Assembly: GCA_964518675.1 (NCBI GenBank)
Contig: CAZFGQ010000008.1
Location: 2,365 to 66,364 of the forward strand
DNA: 64,000 nt
Source of the DNA: an uncultured Spirochaetota bacterium
Lineage (GTDB): Bacteria; Spirochaetota; B62-G9; CAZFGQ01
Reading direction: 5' to 3'
Shown here one piece after another: positions 37,474-62,838 of the stretch. Below the pieces are notes generated by a model, which worked only from the letters and a program-made list of their open reading frames with translations, was not told where the DNA came from and did not search any database. Both the position numbers and the translations under genes were made by a program. Position 1 is the stretch's first letter, and every line of letters begins with the position of its first letter.

Positions 37474-37521
37474 TTATCCTTTTCCTTTCATTGCAATTTA
37501 TCCTTTTCCTTTCATTGCAAT
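37474..37521. repeat. perfect 24-bp tandem duplication (x2) of the last 7 codons plus stop of the STAS gene
   Basis: ttatccttttcctttcattgcaat is repeated twice head-to-tail. Its reverse complement encodes IAMKGKG*. The second unit is the real gene end and the first lies in the 3' UTR. Confidence 0.9.
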
Positions 37522-38208
37522 CTCAAATCTCTTCTGTTTATCAAGTAGCCCCATAGATCTTAATTCTCTTTTAACGCTTCCCGTGCTTGCCTTTTTCCCA
37601 CCATATTGGGGCAGCCGCAACGCTTTGGCAATCTCCTTTACCTCAAAATAGGGATTATCAATAATGACATTGAGTATTCTTCTGCCAAGCTCACTGGTGG
37701 CCATGGAAAATACATCCTCTGCGGATTGTTCAGGTTTCTTTTGCTCAACAGTTTCTGGATTTCTAGATTGTGTGCCTGAGCCAACAGCCGTACTTGCAGG
37801 TTCAGGTATTTTCCGTGTTTTTTCAGAGGATGTTTTTACCGGAACCTCCTCTCCGGTAAAATATGAAATCGCTTCTTCAACACTATCAAAAGATTTCAGA
37901 ATGCTTGAAAACTCCATCAATTCATATACATCATATACATCAGGAGACATATTCGCCAGTACCAGATCGCCGTTGTTCTCCCTGATCTCTCTGATCTCAC
38001 TAACAAAAACGCCCCAACCGGCACTACTCACATAGTCAATATTTTTAAGGTCTACAATAATCTTGTATTTGTTTAGTGCCAGTTGCTCCTCTAGCTTCTT
38101 CTCCAGCTCCGGTGCCGTTGTTGTATCTATGAAACCCTTTGCAGATATGATGGCTATGCTATTATCCCCACCTGCATAGCTCACATTAACCTGGATATCA
38201 GCCATCAA
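37498..38208 (-). CDS. STAS-domain anti-sigma-factor antagonist (SpoIIAA/RsbV-like) with C-terminal winged-helix-like extension
   Basis: STAS fold with a phosphorylatable Ser region (…DYVSSAGWGVFV…). A disordered linker is followed by a ~50-aa C-terminal module homologous to the C-terminus of the adjacent kinase-phosphatase. Confidence 0.7.
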   Translation of the reverse strand: MMADIQVNVSYAGGDNSIAIISAKGFIDTTTAPELEKKLEEQLALNKYKIIVDLKNIDYVSSAGWGVFVSEIREIRENNGDLVLANMSPDVYDVYELMEFSSILKSFDSVEEAISYFTGEEVPVKTSSEKTRKIPEPASTAVGSGTQSRNPETVEQKKPEQSAEDVFSMATSELGRRILNVIIDNPYFEVKEIAKALRLPQYGGKKASTGSVKRELRSMGLLDKQKRFEIAMKGKG

Positions 38209-38356
38209 AACCTCCTGAACTTTTTACATATTTAAAACAGTTTTCTTTAAACAACTTGTTCTAATGAATTGTTTATCGCAATTATAAAATTTTTCAAGAA
38301 AAATCGATTCTTATTTTAATAAAGAATTAAAATGGATCATAATCAAGAAAATAATC

Positions 38357-38530
38357 GATATTAGAACAAATGTCGAGTTTTCTGAAAAATAGAAATCTTA
38401 ATGCAAAATAAAACCAAAAATGTTGCAGCGCCGGCGAACTTCTAACAATTTATATTTATATCCGTTGATTTTTTTATTTTGTATTTATAATTTACGTCTC
38501 ATAATGAAAACTCGAAGTTCGCCCTATTAA
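38357..38530 (+). repeat. dispersed intergenic repeat, copy A (full length, about 175 bp)
   Basis: It aligns end-to-end with copy D at 62662-62838, with the core about 87% identical. It aligns in reverse complement with copies B and C. Shared blocks are aatgtcgagttttc, gaaaaatagaaatc..aatgcaaa, aaaaatgttgcag.gccggcgaacttcgaacaattta and the 3' ataatgaaaactcgaagttcgccc. Confidence 0.85.
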
Positions 38531-38564: not shown

Positions 38565-40943
38565 TTACCTGTATGAAGCTCCAGTTGGCAAAGCTCTTTT
38601 TGCAAATGCCTCACGTTTTTCCCTTGTATCGAGCTTCATCCTTATAAGTTCTCTTCGAACAGTACTTTCCTTTATATCATAACCTCCATACTCCTCGGAC
38701 TGAAGCAACTTTGTAATTCTGCTTACACCATATTCCGGATGTTCTCTTACTATCTGAACAATTGCCTTAACCTGTTCATGAGTAGCATGTGTAAGTTCGA
38801 TTTCTTCTTCCTCCTCTTTCCTCTCTATCTTAAGAGCATCATCACCATACTTTTCTCTTTTCTCCCGCAATTCGAGATATTCTTCATAACTAATTCCCGT
38901 CTTTTCAAGTGCCTCCTCAACCGGCATACCTTCCTCTATTAACTGGAAGAGAGTCAGTCTCTTGGAGTATTCAATCTCTGCAACGCTCATTTCAAGTTTT
39001 ATTACTATGAATGTAATATCATCGGTCTGAGGGTATCCCTTTGTAAACTCCGCTATCTCCTGGTTTAATCTGTTTTTAAAATCCGAAGCTGGAAGATGAT
39101 GGTACTTTTTTATAAACTCTATTAATCTTTTCTCACCGAACTGCTCTCTCTTTTCATTCATAGCCTCGGTGATTCCGTCCGTGTATAGAAACAAAAGATC
39201 ACCTTTCTTCAATTTTAATCTTTCACTGGTAATTCTCTTTCTGAACTCGTCCGGATCTCCAAGATCAATTCCAACAGCTATGCCACGGGGATTTAAAAAA
39301 CTTATAGATTTTGTGGAATCCCTGTACAGTATCATCGGATTATGGCCTGCACTTGCGTAATTTACCATTCTCTTCTTGTTGTCCAATATGACATAAAACA
39401 TGGTAACATACATTCCCTTTCTTATATCGCCCATTGCTGCCTGATTAACTTTTATCAGAACATCACTCGCTCTCTTATTCCCCCTTGCCTCCAGTCTCAT
39501 GGTGGTTCTTATCATCGTCATAACCATAGAACTACCAATCCCCTTACCCGAAACATCAGCTACAACAATACCTATTGAGTTCTCATCAACCTCAAAAAAG
39601 TCGTAGTAATCACCACCAACCTCAAGAGCGGCTCTGTATGATGCATCAATTTCAAACCCTTCCAGTCTTGGAACCTCCTTGGGCAAAAGGGCATTCTGTA
39701 TTTCCTGGGCCAGTTGAAGCTCTCGCCTTAATCTTGTTTGATCAGTTAACTGTCCCTGGGTAATTCTGAGGTTCCTCATAATTTCATTAAATGCCTGGCC
39801 TATCTTGCTTATTTCTGGATTTCTTATATCAAGCCTCAGTTCTCTTATCTGTCCCGACATACTCAATCTAGCTATTTCATCGGCAAGTTTTCTCAGTGGA
39901 ACTATGAATGTGGAGCCTATTACAAAAACACCGATAATCGTTGTTGACCAGAAGAATAAAGCGATAAATGCTACCTTTAATCTTTGTTTAACCAGATCTG
40001 TAACCTCTGCAAACTTATCTTCAGGTATTCCGATATGGACTTCACCGAGTTTAGTATCTTCAAATCTTATAACCGCAGAAAAATCATTGTAAACCCTTCC
40101 ACCACCTCCCCTGTAGTTAAATACCTTTGCCGTATCTTTCGCTGTAAGCGGTTTTACTCCCGGTGGATAGGTATATCTCGTATAAATCTTCTTCACATCA
40201 GTATGGGCAATTATCGTTCCATCATTTCTTGTAATAACAATATACTCAAGGGGTTCTTCATTCTGCTTAACACTGGCGGCAAGATTGATGAGGCCGAGAT
40301 CATCTCCCTCAAGGATCATGTCAGAAGCTGCAGATGCTATCTGTTCTGTTATCGAACGGTATCTATCTAAAAACTTGTCTCTGATAGCTTTAATCTGATA
40401 TCTGGAGCCTATATTATAAACAATTACTATAAGCGCTGTAATAAACGCAAATGCATACAGAGCATATCTCACCCTCATTGAGAACTTTGCCCTGACACCG
40501 GGTACAGCTCCTGTGATTGCTTCTGGCTCGAGATAAACCTTCATTGTCAGAACATTTGTATCTTCGATACGCTGGAACTGTACTTCATCTATTAGTTTTT
40601 TGATCAGCCATATTCCAAGTCCACCCTTTCTTCTTGTCTCGACGTATTTATAAAGGTCAGGTTCAACAACTGAACTCCAATCAAACTCAATCCCCCAGTC
40701 AATTATCTTAATTTCTACGTAATCTTCCCTCCTCGCCATCTCAATTCTAAAGTCGCCTTTTCTACCAGGGTAGGCATGTCTTATAATGTTTGAAACAGCT
40801 TCATCAACAGCCAGTTTAACCTCGCTGACCTGTTTCTCCGAGAGTCCCATTTTCCGGCCGTATTTAACAACAAAGTTTCTGACTTTTATTAAATTGGATG
40901 TTTCAGCAGCGAATTGTGTACTTTTTACCTTATTTGCTTTCAT
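38565..40943 (-). CDS. fused partner-switching kinase/phosphatase: N-terminal RsbW/SpoIIAB-like HATPase_c anti-sigma kinase + 2 TM + HAMP-like + PP2C (SpoIIE/RsbU) phosphatase + C-terminal wHTH-like module
   Basis: N-box EAVSNIIRHAY and G-box GGLGIWLIKKL. Two hydrophobic helices. PP2C motifs DASYRAALEVGGDYYDF and VADVSGKG. Confidence 0.75.
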   Translation of the reverse strand: MKANKVKSTQFAAETSNLIKVRNFVVKYGRKMGLSEKQVSEVKLAVDEAVSNIIRHAYPGRKGDFRIEMARREDYVEIKIIDWGIEFDWSSVVEPDLYKYVETRRKGGLGIWLIKKLIDEVQFQRIEDTNVLTMKVYLEPEAITGAVPGVRAKFSMRVRYALYAFAFITALIVIVYNIGSRYQIKAIRDKFLDRYRSITEQIASAASDMILEGDDLGLINLAASVKQNEEPLEYIVITRNDGTIIAHTDVKKIYTRYTYPPGVKPLTAKDTAKVFNYRGGGGRVYNDFSAVIRFEDTKLGEVHIGIPEDKFAEVTDLVKQRLKVAFIALFFWSTTIIGVFVIGSTFIVPLRKLADEIARLSMSGQIRELRLDIRNPEISKIGQAFNEIMRNLRITQGQLTDQTRLRRELQLAQEIQNALLPKEVPRLEGFEIDASYRAALEVGGDYYDFFEVDENSIGIVVADVSGKGIGSSMVMTMIRTTMRLEARGNKRASDVLIKVNQAAMGDIRKGMYVTMFYVILDNKKRMVNYASAGHNPMILYRDSTKSISFLNPRGIAVGIDLGDPDEFRKRITSERLKLKKGDLLFLYTDGITEAMNEKREQFGEKRLIEFIKKYHHLPASDFKNRLNQEIAEFTKGYPQTDDITFIVIKLEMSVAEIEYSKRLTLFQLIEEGMPVEEALEKTGISYEEYLELREKREKYGDDALKIERKEEEEEIELTHATHEQVKAIVQIVREHPEYGVSRITKLLQSEEYGGYDIKESTVRRELIRMKLDTREKREAFAKRALPTGASYR

Positions 40944-49510: not shown

Positions 49511-49791
49511 AACGCCCTCCTTTTATAATCCAGATTCAAAATAATCAAATATGTTTTCTTGCAGCCCTCAACAGCCACGAACAACAGGTAAATTAATCAA
49601 TAGTGTTTAATCGCAGGGAGGATTTTATAAACCTTTTCAGTGGCATTTATTAAGAATTATACATAAGAAAAATTATAGTGCAATATGAATTTTTAACAAT
49701 AATTACTTTTTTATAAAAAAAATAAAATCTAACTTATAGTTTTAACCACCCATTAAACCTCAGAGATAAAGGCACTACCGGTAGTTAATTA

Positions 49792-49920
49792 GTACGAGTT
49801 CGAGTTTTCTTTTTGGAGCGAAAATTATTGATTTAAATTTTTCGAAGTTTACCGGCAATGCAACATTTTTAATTCTATTTTGCATTCGGATTTCTATTTT
49901 TCAGGAAACTCGTCATTGTC
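49792..49920 (-). repeat. dispersed intergenic repeat, copy B (reverse orientation, with an internal deletion of about 45 bp)
   Basis: The reverse complement matches the copy A/D core (gaaaaatagaaatccgaatgcaaaatagaattaaaaatgttgcattgccggtaaacttcgaaaaatttaaatcaata). It lacks the AT-rich spacer. It lies between rpsT and hup. Confidence 0.8.
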
Positions 49921-52353: not shown

Positions 52354-52514
52354 GGGCGAACTTAAAGTTTTTATTATAAAACGCAAATTATCAATACCAG
52401 ATAAAGAAATCGACAGATATTGATTTAAATTGTTCGAAGTTTGCCGGCACTGCAACATTTTTGGTACTATTTTGCATGAGAATTTCTATTTTTCATGAAA
52501 CTTGACATTCGTTC
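52354..52514 (-). repeat. dispersed intergenic repeat, copy C (reverse orientation)
   Basis: The reverse complement aligns with copies A and D across the core, the AT-rich spacer and the 3' inverted terminus. Its 3' end overlaps the spurious N-terminal extension of the next ORF. Confidence 0.85.
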
Positions 52515-55801: not shown

Positions 55802-56224
55802 CTACTCGGTTTTATCTTGATCAGATGGGTTTTCAGGATTTGTTCCCTGCTGTCCCATATTTGGGGGGGCCTGGTAGTTTGGATTCTGGGGTTGTTGAGG
55901 CTGTTGATATGCCTGACCTGGCTGTTGAGGCTGCTGATAAGTTTGATTCGGTTGTTGTGGCTGCTGATACGGACCATAGTACTGACCGGGACCAGGTTGC
56001 TGCATGCCCTGGGGCGGTTGCTGATATCCCTGAGGTTGACTGGTTGTATATGAAATCTTTCCTGTTGTTTCCTCGTCTTCTTCTATCCCCTTTATCGTCT
56101 TCTTAAACTCTTTTATCCCCAATCCCAGGGACCTTGCAATTTTCGGCAGGCGTGCTGCTCCAAAAACGAGCAATCCTACGACTAATATAATAAGTATCTC
56201 CTGTATCCCAATTCCTCCAATCAT
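55802..56224 (-). CDS. tatA: twin-arginine translocase subunit TatA/E with a ~75-aa Q/P/Y-rich low-complexity C-terminal tail
   Basis: TM plus amphipathic helix MIGGIGIQEILIILVVGLLVFGAARLPKIARSLGLGIKEFKK. The tail has repeated YQQPQQP units, and the underlying DNA (55820-56050) is an imperfect ~30-nt tandem repeat. Confidence 0.8.
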   Translation of the reverse strand: MIGGIGIQEILIILVVGLLVFGAARLPKIARSLGLGIKEFKKTIKGIEEDEETTGKISYTTSQPQGYQQPPQGMQQPGPGQYYGPYQQPQQPNQTYQQPQQPGQAYQQPQQPQNPNYQAPPNMGQQGTNPENPSDQDKTE

Positions 56225-60858: not shown

Positions 60859-62670
60859 ATGATAAAGGTTAGATTTGAACCAGATGGAAAAGTTGTTGAA
60901 ATAAACCCGGGAACAACAATATATGAAGCCCTGAATAAAGCGGGAATACCTATCAGATCTGATTGCGGTGGCAGGGGCATGTGCATGAAATGCCTTGTTA
61001 AAATAATCGATGGGAAATTCGAAGGAGAGAAGGTTGATGGAGATTATTACCTTGCATGCAAAACAAGACTTATGGGGGACAGCACAGTAGAAATCCCCGA
61101 AATTAGCAGAACAGGCGAGCAGAGAATTCTTACTGAGGGGATCACTTTAGAACTTAAAATAAATCCCCGAATAAAAAAGTACTTCTCCAGCATTCCTGAA
61201 CCAACACTCGAAGATCAACGGTTCGATGTTGATAGAATAATAACCGAGTTCAGCGGTATTGTTCAAAAACCAAAGTTAAATCACAACACTATCAGGAACA
61301 TTCCAAACACATTGCGGGAATCAAAATACAAAATAACAGGTGTTTTTAGTGAAGAGGAACTCCTGGATATTGAAGCTGGAAATACCACATCTACGACATA
61401 CGGGCTTGCCGTTGATATTGGTACAACCACCGTCGTAGGATACCTTATGGATCTTAATACAGGAGAACAGATTGCCGTAGCTTCAAAAACGAATCCGCAA
61501 ACGAGCTACGGTGACGATGTTATATCCAGGATAAACCTCACCATAACAAATAAAGATGGAATTAATATACTCCACGAAGCCATCATCGATTGCATAAATG
61601 GAATAATCAAAGAGCTATGCCTCAAGACTGGAGTTAAAAAGAGCCATATCTATGAAGCAGTTTTTACAGGCAACACAACCATGACTCACCTGTTTTTGAA
61701 AATTAACCCCAAATTCCTGGCTTTAAATCCTTACGTGGGGGTTGTAAGAGAAGAAGTAAGCGGGAGGGCAGAGGACATTGGCCTTGATATAAATCCAAAT
61801 GGGATATTCAGAAGCATGCCAAATATAGGAGGTTTTGTTGGCGGAGATACGGTGGGTGTAATCCTTGCCTCTTCGCTCTACAGAGAGGAAAAAATTAGAT
61901 TTGCAATAGATATAGGCACCAACGGTGAGCTTGTCCTGGGAAACAATAAAAGGATATTTGCATGCAGTACCGCTGCTGGACCGGCGTTTGAGGGAGCAAG
62001 AATAACATTTGGAATGAGGGCAACAGAGGGAGCAATTGAAAAAATTGAGATAAATAATGGGAGTGTAACATACAAAACAATTGGAGATACTCCCCCCGTT
62101 GGACTATGCGGGACGGGTCTGATAGAAGCAATAGCAGAACTCAGAAAGATTGGCATTATAGACTACAAGGGAAGAATAATGAGGCCTGATGAACTACCCA
62201 ATATACATGATGAGCTGAAAGCGAGGATAATTGAACATCCAAAATACGGTCTATGCTTTATTATCGCAAAAAAAGAGGAATCGGGTAGAGAGGAAGAAAT
62301 ACTTCTCACACAAAAGGATGTGAGAGAAACACAGCTTGCAAAGGGTGCAATTATGGCTGGCTTTAACATACTGAAAAAGAAACTGGGATTGCTGGACAAA
62401 GACATTGACGAAATACTTATAGCAGGAGCATTTGGTAACTATATCGATCCAAAAAAAGCGAGATCGATAGGCCTGTTGCCGGATTTCCCCGATGGAAAAA
62501 TGAGGTTCATAGGAAATGCAGCAGGCACGGGAGCTAAAATTGTGCTACTATCAGAGGAGGCAAGACGTGATGCAGCCAGAATATCGGGGATTACCAAACA
62601 CATAGAGCTTGCCGTTTCTCAGGACTTTTATAAAGAGTTTTCAGACGCAATGTACTTTCCCGATATTTAG
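60859..62670 (+). CDS. RACo-like protein: N-terminal plant-type [2Fe-2S] ferredoxin domain + ASKHA ATPase (COG3894/DUF4445), orphan
   Basis: Ferredoxin cysteines SDCGGRGMCMKC...LAC. ASKHA phosphate-1 motif LAVDIGTTTVVGYLMDL and further actin-fold motifs (IDIGTNGELVLG). Size of 603 aa is typical of corrinoid reductive activases. Confidence 0.65.
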   Translation: MIKVRFEPDGKVVEINPGTTIYEALNKAGIPIRSDCGGRGMCMKCLVKIIDGKFEGEKVDGDYYLACKTRLMGDSTVEIPEISRTGEQRILTEGITLELKINPRIKKYFSSIPEPTLEDQRFDVDRIITEFSGIVQKPKLNHNTIRNIPNTLRESKYKITGVFSEEELLDIEAGNTTSTTYGLAVDIGTTTVVGYLMDLNTGEQIAVASKTNPQTSYGDDVISRINLTITNKDGINILHEAIIDCINGIIKELCLKTGVKKSHIYEAVFTGNTTMTHLFLKINPKFLALNPYVGVVREEVSGRAEDIGLDINPNGIFRSMPNIGGFVGGDTVGVILASSLYREEKIRFAIDIGTNGELVLGNNKRIFACSTAAGPAFEGARITFGMRATEGAIEKIEINNGSVTYKTIGDTPPVGLCGTGLIEAIAELRKIGIIDYKGRIMRPDELPNIHDELKARIIEHPKYGLCFIIAKKEESGREEEILLTQKDVRETQLAKGAIMAGFNILKKKLGLLDKDIDEILIAGAFGNYIDPKKARSIGLLPDFPDGKMRFIGNAAGTGAKIVLLSEEARRDAARISGITKHIELAVSQDFYKEFSDAMYFPDI

Positions 62671-62838
62671 AACGAATGTCGAGTTTTCCAAAAAATAGAA
62701 ATCCGAATGCAAAGTAGAACTAAAAATGTCGTAGTGCCGGCGAACTTCGAACAATTTAAATCAATATTTTTTGATTTCTCTATCCTGTATTAATAATTTG
62801 CGTTTCATAATGAAAACTCGAAGTTCGCCCTATTTAAA
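62662..62838 (+). repeat. dispersed intergenic repeat, copy D (full length)
   Basis: See copy A. It begins at the stop codon of the RACo-like gene and ends about 60 bp before the 3' end of rpe (convergent genes). Confidence 0.85.

Follow-up and report, generated by a model that had tools for sequence, protein, structure and literature searches.

A ~161-bp MITE family of an uncultured Spirochaetota-like lineage and its probable mobilisation in trans by an IS982-family transposase

Four copies of a repeat in a 64-kb window

The window, by which we mean the whole 64-kb stretch of DNA that was analysed, has a GC content of ~38% and encodes STAS/SpoIIE partner-switching proteins, Lnt, HU, S20, UvrC, RACo and Rpe. 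Exact-protein look-ups found the window in ENA, Logan and JGI metagenome assemblies, and it is 99.9% identical to ERZ27248139 k141_520319. The best named relatives of its UvrC protein are entries designated 'MAG: Spirochaetota bacterium' (49-53% identity), and one single relative reaches 82%. These distant UvrC relatives suggest that the host belongs to an uncultured, poorly sampled Spirochaetota-like lineage.

The window contains four copies of a repeat, c1 to c4 (Table 1). An earlier sequence-only reading of the same DNA had reported four copies, and all of them are present; its coordinates lie within ~8 nt of ours and include the flanking duplications. In blastn comparisons the copies are 83-87% identical in pairs, with E values of 1e-22 to 1e-52. 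A repeat search returned the same four sites as the top direct and inverted repeat families of the window (82-85% identity across 99-172 nt). Searches for three sub-motifs gave matches only at the four copy sites (at three of them for the 3' block), and 0-0.2 matches are expected in shuffled sequences. No additional copy or fragment was found in the 64-kb window by the repeat, blastn or sub-motif searches. The boundaries of the copies were refined from the junction profile of 41-43 copies of the family.

Table 1. Copies of the repeat in the window and their component features
Feature	Position	Strand	Remarks
MITE copy c1, full length, 161 nt, GAAC…GCCC	38364..38524	+	anchored ends; 83-85% identical to c3 and c4
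c1 left target-site duplication, TATTA	38359..38363	.	same letters as 38525-38529
c1 right target-site duplication, TATTA	38525..38529	.	same letters as 38359-38363
MITE copy c2, short and degraded	about 49791..49920	-	blastn 84-87% to other copies over 87-97 nt
MITE copy c3, full length, 161 nt	52354..52514	-	anchored ends
MITE copy c4, full length, 161 nt	62670..62830	+	anchored ends
c4 left target-site duplication, TATTTA, 6 bp	62664..62669	.	equals the right one
c4 right target-site duplication, TATTTA	62831..62836	.	equals the left one
c4 5' terminal inverted repeat, GAACGAATGTCGAGTTTTC	62670..62688	+	16-17/20 match to the terminal repeat of the L126 insertion sequence
GCCGGC palindrome before the c4 internal core	62736-62741	.	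sequence
c4 internal third copy of the terminal-repeat core, GGCGAACTTCGA	62739..62750	+	complementary to the 3' terminal repeat; 8 pairs, none covarying
c4 3' terminal inverted repeat, GAAAACTCGAAGTTCGCCC	62812..62830	+	sequence, sub-motif search, terminal pairing

Copy c1 lies between the genes of a 792-aa fusion protein (38565-40943) and a 236-aa STAS protein (37498-38208), both on the minus strand. The fusion protein consists of a HATPase_c_2 anti-sigma-type kinase, sCache, HAMP and a SpoIIE PP2C phosphatase, and c1 looks as if it sits inside a partner-switching operon. Copy c2 is located upstream of a HU-family gene. This copy lacks ~29 nt between its internal ATCAATA direct repeats, and its 3' terminal repeat is eroded over the final 8 nt, in place of the clean ~45-bp internal deletion that had been described for one copy. 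Near c3, the public call of a 427-aa gene with an NPCBM_assoc domain starts at an ATG inside the repeat (52495). A likelier ATG lies at ~52549, with GGAGGA before it and the 5' tip of c3 35 nt upstream. As this second ATG is the more plausible start, the public call is probably 18 codons too long.

Anatomy of the repeat

Lengths across the family were taken by anchoring on the termini. The modal length is 160-162 nt, and there are also four short forms of 128-133 nt. The 161-nt family consensus is GAACGAATGTCGAGTTTTCTGAAAAATAGAAATCCTAATGCAAAATAGAACCAAAAATGTTGCAGTGCCGGCGAACTTCGAACAATTTATATCAATATCTGTTGATTTTTTTATTTTGTATCAATAATTTGCGTTTCATAATGAAAACTCGAAGTTCGCCC. Its ends form imperfect inverted repeats of 19 nt (GAACGAAtgTCGAGTTTTC and GGGCGAActTCGAGTTTTC), with 15-16 of the 19 positions complementary. 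In agreement with the inverted termini noted earlier, the 5' end GAACGAATGTCGAGTTTTC and the reverse complement of the 3' end, GGGCGAACTTCGAGTTTTC, agree at 15/19 positions. The core of the terminal repeats recurs inside the element as a direct copy, GGCGAACTTCGA, which stands after a GCCGGC palindrome. This central block can pair with the 3' block, as the sequence-only reading had claimed, and the CCGG-centred palindrome that it described reads GCCGGC in 4/4 window copies. Conservation profiles of the copies define both ends of the element: the information content drops abruptly just past GCCC at the 3' end, and at the 5' end it falls ~6 nt ahead of GAAC.

The AT-rich spacer carries two ATCAATA direct repeats. 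The short forms, c2 included, look like spacer deletions that removed all or part of the stretch between these repeats, from an alignment judged by eye. In most copies the spacer also reads TATCAATAATTTG at consensus positions ~116-128 (for example 62785-62800 in c4). The E. coli IHF consensus is WATCAANNNNTTR, and the spacer motif fits it; this is a candidate site by sequence alone. One 173-nt variant copy (L128:5381-5553) carries ~14 inserted nt after the 5' terminal repeat, its tips are degraded, and its flanks show no matching duplication.

A mini-ORF of 13 codons lies at the 5' end of the repeat and is intact in 25/41 copies. It is disrupted in the other 16/41, and we therefore rejected a small peptide as the product of the repeat. 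No longer ORF is conserved among the family copies, consistent with the earlier statement that the repeat has no conserved coding potential. We note that the best-conserved core in the copy alignment largely coincides with the pattern that was used to fetch the JGI contigs. The conservation of this core thus reflects ascertainment bias and is not evidence of function.

A family of dispersed, mostly intergenic copies

A profile of the four window copies was searched with nhmmer against the fetched contigs and gave 56 hits. After clustering by flanks, these hits represent 46 distinct loci, the four in the window included, which bears out the earlier expectation of dozens of copies genome-wide. 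A stricter pattern in JGI metagenomes retrieved 42 contigs from three samples, and two of these samples, Ga0180301 and Ga0190361, also hold the Rpe locus of the window. The copy density is 1 per 24 kb when only copies not responsible for contig retrieval are counted, and 1 per 16 kb in the window. Extrapolated to a genome assumed to be a few Mb in size, these densities would correspond to roughly a hundred or more copies per genome. No copies were matched in viral contigs. A scan of genome contigs with a loose AT-rich pattern (AAAAATAGAAATNNNNATGCAAA) gave chance matches, and among the at least 97 listed none extends past the pattern itself.

The intergenic placement in both orientations that had been noted for the window copies holds family-wide, with 41/43 copies intergenic and mixed orientation. 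Relative to the flanking genes, 12 copies are in tandem sense, 7 in tandem antisense, 10 in divergent and 5 in convergent arrangement. The stop codon of a long ORF lies at most 8 nt from a tip in 4/41 copies.

Copy pairs share 82% identity on average, and the copies are on average 89% identical to the consensus. Two copies on one contig (L133), 3.8 kb apart and with different flanks, form the closest pair from different sites (98% identical). With a mean divergence of 18%, a large part of the family may be old and no longer mobile. From these identities, the majority of the copies look old, and a few could be of recent origin. The family may still be active.

The repeats also coincide with breaks in public assemblies. 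Three independent Logan short-read contigs (L099, L100 and L103) end at the same base inside c2, window position 49888. Assemblers usually break at multi-copy repeats, and the family accounts for the short-read contigs that end inside copies and for the fragmented assemblies of this host. Two other Logan contigs end ~210 nt further on, in an AT-rich run at ~49669-49678.

Target-site duplications and a nested insertion

The sequence-only reading had proposed a search for target-site duplications, and we compared the flanks of 41 copies. In 17/41 copies, the 5 nt that precede GAAC are identical to the 5 nt that follow GCCC, and the mean number in permutations is 2.8 (0/300 permutations reach 17). 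Beyond these perfect 5-bp matches, 4 more copies have perfect matches at 6 bp and 8 more agree at 4/5 positions, such as c3 in the window (TAAAT/TAGAT) in the latter group. The three variable bases of the TAnnn duplication agree in 20/41 copies, compared with 4.9 expected. The target consensus is A-TAWWW, and the residual conservation in the flanks belongs to a direct repeat whose letters vary between copies. Non-palindromic duplication pairs are found among the copies, including TATTG, TAATT, TAGTA, TATCA and TAAAT. These non-palindromic duplications rule out an extension of the inverted repeat.

A nested insertion was found on one contig (L131:560-1040, minus strand), in which a full copy lies within a more diverged copy and is flanked by a TATTG duplication. 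When the inner copy and one TATTG are removed, the outer copy aligns collinearly across the junction with 14 other copies. The restored outer copy is direct evidence of transposition-type insertion with a 5-bp duplication. The 5' half of this outer copy (…AAAATCAAAAAATTGATTTATTATTGTAAACGATTCGGGATTAAAATCCTGCAATAA…) is unlike the main family, and its divergence suggests a second subfamily.

The proposal to look for empty sites in related strains gave a divided result: the nested copy provides an interrupted and restorable site, and no empty chromosomal locus was recovered in related strains or species. An all-against-all search with reconstructed empty sites returned only the nested L131 case. 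For c4, a look-up of Rpe returned 9 contigs, and all 7 that span the Rpe-RACo interval keep the 231-nt spacing of the window, so that c4 appears to be present in these contigs from other samples. For c3, the UvrC contig of a sister species (82% amino-acid identity) ends ~100 nt short of the site.

At c4, the insertion site can be read in relation to a gene end. The TAG stop codon of the RACo gene (60859-62670) consists of the last two bases of the left duplication and the first G of the MITE, and the reconstructed empty site, …CCCGATATTTAAAACTCAAC…, would read a TAA stop for RACo. The gene has TAG with the insertion and would have TAA without it, which indicates that c4 landed on the RACo stop codon and left the protein unchanged.

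An IS982-family insertion sequence with similar termini

A cognate transposase with matching terminal repeats had also been suggested as something to look for. A search for solo termini led to a 1,019-bp insertion sequence (L126:252-1270; JGI Ga0180301_10031190) flanked by TATTA/TATTA, and its ends match those of the MITE at 15-17 of 20 positions at both tips. The insertion sequence has 20-bp terminal inverted repeats GAACGAAWTTCGAGTTTTAG (GAACGAAATTCGAGTTTTAG and GAACGAATTTCGAGTTTTAG). It is located on a 3.7-kb contig between two MITE copies, 11 nt after one and ~200 nt before the other. Its ORF is intact and encodes a 299-aa protein that matches NCBIfam NF033520 (IS982 family) with 162.3 bits against a cut-off of 130, over model positions 2-241 of 243, and Pfam PF13612 (DDE_Tnp_1_3) with an E value of 2.9e-35. 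Its length of ~1 kb, its one ORF for a DDE transposase, its terminal inverted repeats and its short duplication make it a typical member of the IS982 family. The repeats in the window differ from IS982-family insertion sequences in having no transposase and one-sixth of the length.

The same insertion sequence is found at another site (L146 and L147) with 96% identity and identical termini. A relative with 75% identity occupies one conserved context on 7 contigs from 7 JGI samples (L148-L154), a fragment is present in the NCBI assembly GCA_054001375.1, and the named relatives, at ~50% identity, are in Treponema and Spirochaetia MAGs. The 5-bp flanking matches of the copies in L146 and L148 are imperfect; those of the L126 copy are the perfect TATTA. 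L126 is the one contig on which an insertion-sequence copy and MITEs occur together, and no MITE copies were found on 10 other loci with the insertion sequence or its relatives.

The interior of the MITE is not shared with this insertion sequence. No copy gave a blastn match to it, and the likeness is limited to ~20-25 terminal nt. The MITE is therefore not a simple or recent deletion product of the L126 insertion sequence; on sequence grounds, it is a terminal-repeat mimic or a very old derivative of it. The shared samples suggest that the L126 contig belongs to the genome of the window. A transposase of the L126 type probably mobilises the MITE in trans, as judged from the terminal match.

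Alternative explanations

It is conceivable that another transposase family moved the MITE, either as a Tn3-derived TIME or as an IS630/mariner-type element such as Correia, and that the terminal match to the IS982-family element is a coincidence. We consider this very unlikely. A 5-bp duplication and an AT-rich target are also typical of Tn3, and the 3' tip GGGC… recalls the GGGG of the Tn3 family, but the terminal repeats are ~19-20 bp and not ~38 bp. A Tn3-derived origin was rejected on this terminal-repeat length (complementarity stops at ~19 nt, with tips GAAC and GGGC) and on the IS982 partner. TA stands next to the tips in nearly all copies, in favour of a TA-only duplication of the IS630/Correia or RUP type, but the match between flanks spans 5 bp in individual copies and not 2, and this type was rejected accordingly. 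The unrelated interiors of the MITE and the IS982-family element would also fit another transposase. Against this stand the agreement at both tips, the 5-bp duplication that the L126 copy has in common with the MITE and the presence of the element on the same 3.7-kb contig as two MITEs. By calculation, ~0.004 chance matches with at most two mismatches in 19 are expected in the sequence searched, and no Tn3 or IS630 transposase was found in the 356 kb examined.

The copies might instead be a structured ncRNA or cis-regulatory RNA family, whose terminal and central blocks form alternative helices, for example as a terminator/antiterminator-like switch; we regard this as highly improbable. The 3' block is indeed able to pair with the 5' end or with the central core, and the copies are intergenic. 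However, RNAalifold on 36 full-length copies found no helix other than the one of 8 pairs that joins the central and the 3' block, with -2 kcal/mol, a covariation term of +0.03 and 0 compensatory pairs. In the terminal-repeat helix, 88.8% of cells are paired in the 36 copies compared with 88.2% in column shuffles, with 60/500 shuffles as high, and 7 double-change cells were counted against 4.2 expected. As the terminal pairing is no better than in shuffles, the complementarity appears to be inherited from an ancestral element and not kept by selection on pairing. These results agree with the earlier observation that substitutions in the arms are not compensatory. A match to a catalogued Rfam family, which the sequence-only reading had named as evidence against its proposal, was not found at gathering thresholds in the whole window, and in a sensitive scan of one copy the best score was 19.7 bits against a threshold of 211 bits. 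A gene lies beyond the 3' end on the same strand in 26/40 copies by hand count, a weak and non-significant bias, but the orientation relative to flanking genes is not fixed. Promoter-like or terminator-like sites are not above chance in simple scans, and a promoter or terminator function of the copies was rejected on this basis. The target-site duplications of individual copies and the nested insertion are signatures at the DNA level.

Finally, host-maintained repeated DNA, such as an IHF/HU or regulator binding module of REP/BIME-like kind spread by recombination and not by transposition, is scarcely credible: its placement is strictly intergenic (41/43 copies) and the spacer fits the IHF consensus, but the copies have defined termini, 5-bp duplications, a nested insertion and a relative that bears a transposase, and at a mean divergence of 18% they show no block that looks conserved by selection. 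PMC3733652 describes REP elements as 20-40-bp palindromes without target-site duplications. REP/BIME was rejected as an identity for the family because the unit is 161 nt with 5-bp duplications.

A MITE family and its relation to known elements

The target-site duplications, the nested insertion, the IS982-family partner with matching ends and the at least 46 loci together lead us to conclude, with high confidence, that the family is a ~161-bp non-coding, non-autonomous MITE, and that an IS982-family transposase acting in trans most likely moves it. The earlier preference for a MITE-like DNA element over an ncRNA is supported by the same observations and by the lack of an RNA signal. In the mechanism that we propose, a DDE transposase supplied in trans would recognise the MITE termini, and the best candidate enzyme is encoded by the 1,019-bp IS982-family insertion sequence, whose 20-bp termini are nearly identical to them. 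Insertion would take place at AT-rich sites (A-TAWWW) through a 5-bp staggered cut, and repair of this cut would leave a direct repeat of 5 bp, occasionally 6 bp. Such insertions would have spread the element to ~1 copy per 16-24 kb, almost always between genes and in either orientation.

Several known elements share parts of this description. In Neisseria, the Correia elements (NEMIS) are MITEs of 100-160 bp that lie between genes, often near gene ends; their long and short forms differ by an internal deletion, and their interior has an IHF-like site. They duplicate TA and have 26-bp terminal repeats. The spirochaete family resembles them in size, intergenic habit, terminal inverted repeats, long and short forms, IHF-like site, high copy number and insertions near gene ends. 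It differs from them in its 5-bp duplication, its 19-nt repeats and its IS982-family candidate partner, and promoter or terminator function was not detected in our scans. TIMEs are Tn3-derived, non-autonomous elements with 5-bp duplications at AT-rich targets and ~38-bp terminal repeats starting with GGGG. The family shares the 5-bp duplication, the AT-rich targets and the non-autonomous nature with TIMEs, but its 19-20-nt repeats match an IS982-family element.

The closest parallel in terms of a partner is found in Cardinium, where MITECca01/02 are ~240 bp long, derive from the IS982-family ISCca4 and retain sub-terminal parental sequence (PMC9769881). Like MITECca01/02, the present family is short, non-coding and of many copies, its termini match an IS982-family element in what appears to be the same genome, and it is presumed to be mobilised in trans by an intact transposase. 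Unlike them, it is ~161 bp long, shares only ~20 terminal nt with its candidate partner, has an internal third core copy and occurs in a free-living-type Spirochaetota-like genome. The two have no sequence relationship. The present family would be a second MITE on record that is linked to an IS982-family transposase. No account of this sequence was found in a literature search, and the class of element is well known.

One further idea is that the host lineage has co-opted the element as a portable module for regulation or nucleoid organisation; it might then provide, for example, 3'-end hairpins or IHF/HU bends at roughly a hundred intergenic sites or more. The idea derives from the unusual three-site architecture of two terminal repeats and an internal core copy, the GCCGGC palindrome, the IHF-consensus site and the insertions at or on stop codons or just upstream of gene starts, and we regard it as unlikely. 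Hybrid promoters at the ends of insertion sequences are a known theme. At 38348-38376 (minus strand), the 5' terminal repeat reads TCGACA outward, which is -35-like, and c1 supplies TATTTT at a spacing of 17 nt in the direction of the STAS gene; with 9/12 positions matching, the pair is at chance level.

The value of the family is mainly practical, and it opens no new biological question. For annotation, it accounts for ~1 site per 16-24 kb that would otherwise be left blank or mis-called, as with the start of the 427-aa gene inside c3. The clear 5-bp duplication and the A-TAWWW preference are useful for the curation of insertion-sequence and MITE catalogues, and copy polymorphism could serve as a strain marker in metagenomes.

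Other features of the window

Three tandem 30-nt repeats, 67-73% identical, lie at 55890-55979 within a 140-aa TatA/B/E-family gene (55802-56224, minus strand). They would encode a repeated 10-residue segment in the C-terminal region of the protein. At ~50.3 kb, at the divergent S20/UvrC pair, the genes switch from almost all minus to almost all plus and the GC skew changes sign. A replication origin near 50 kb was rejected: there is no DnaA-box cluster, and the skew at 1-kb resolution tracks the coding strand. Finally, 9-mers like TTATCCACA (at most one mismatch) are over-represented in the window, with 35 occurrences compared with 21 ± 3.7 in shuffles (0/100 as high). They are spread window-wide, mostly on the plus strand within minus-strand genes, and their excess may be a codon or oligonucleotide bias.
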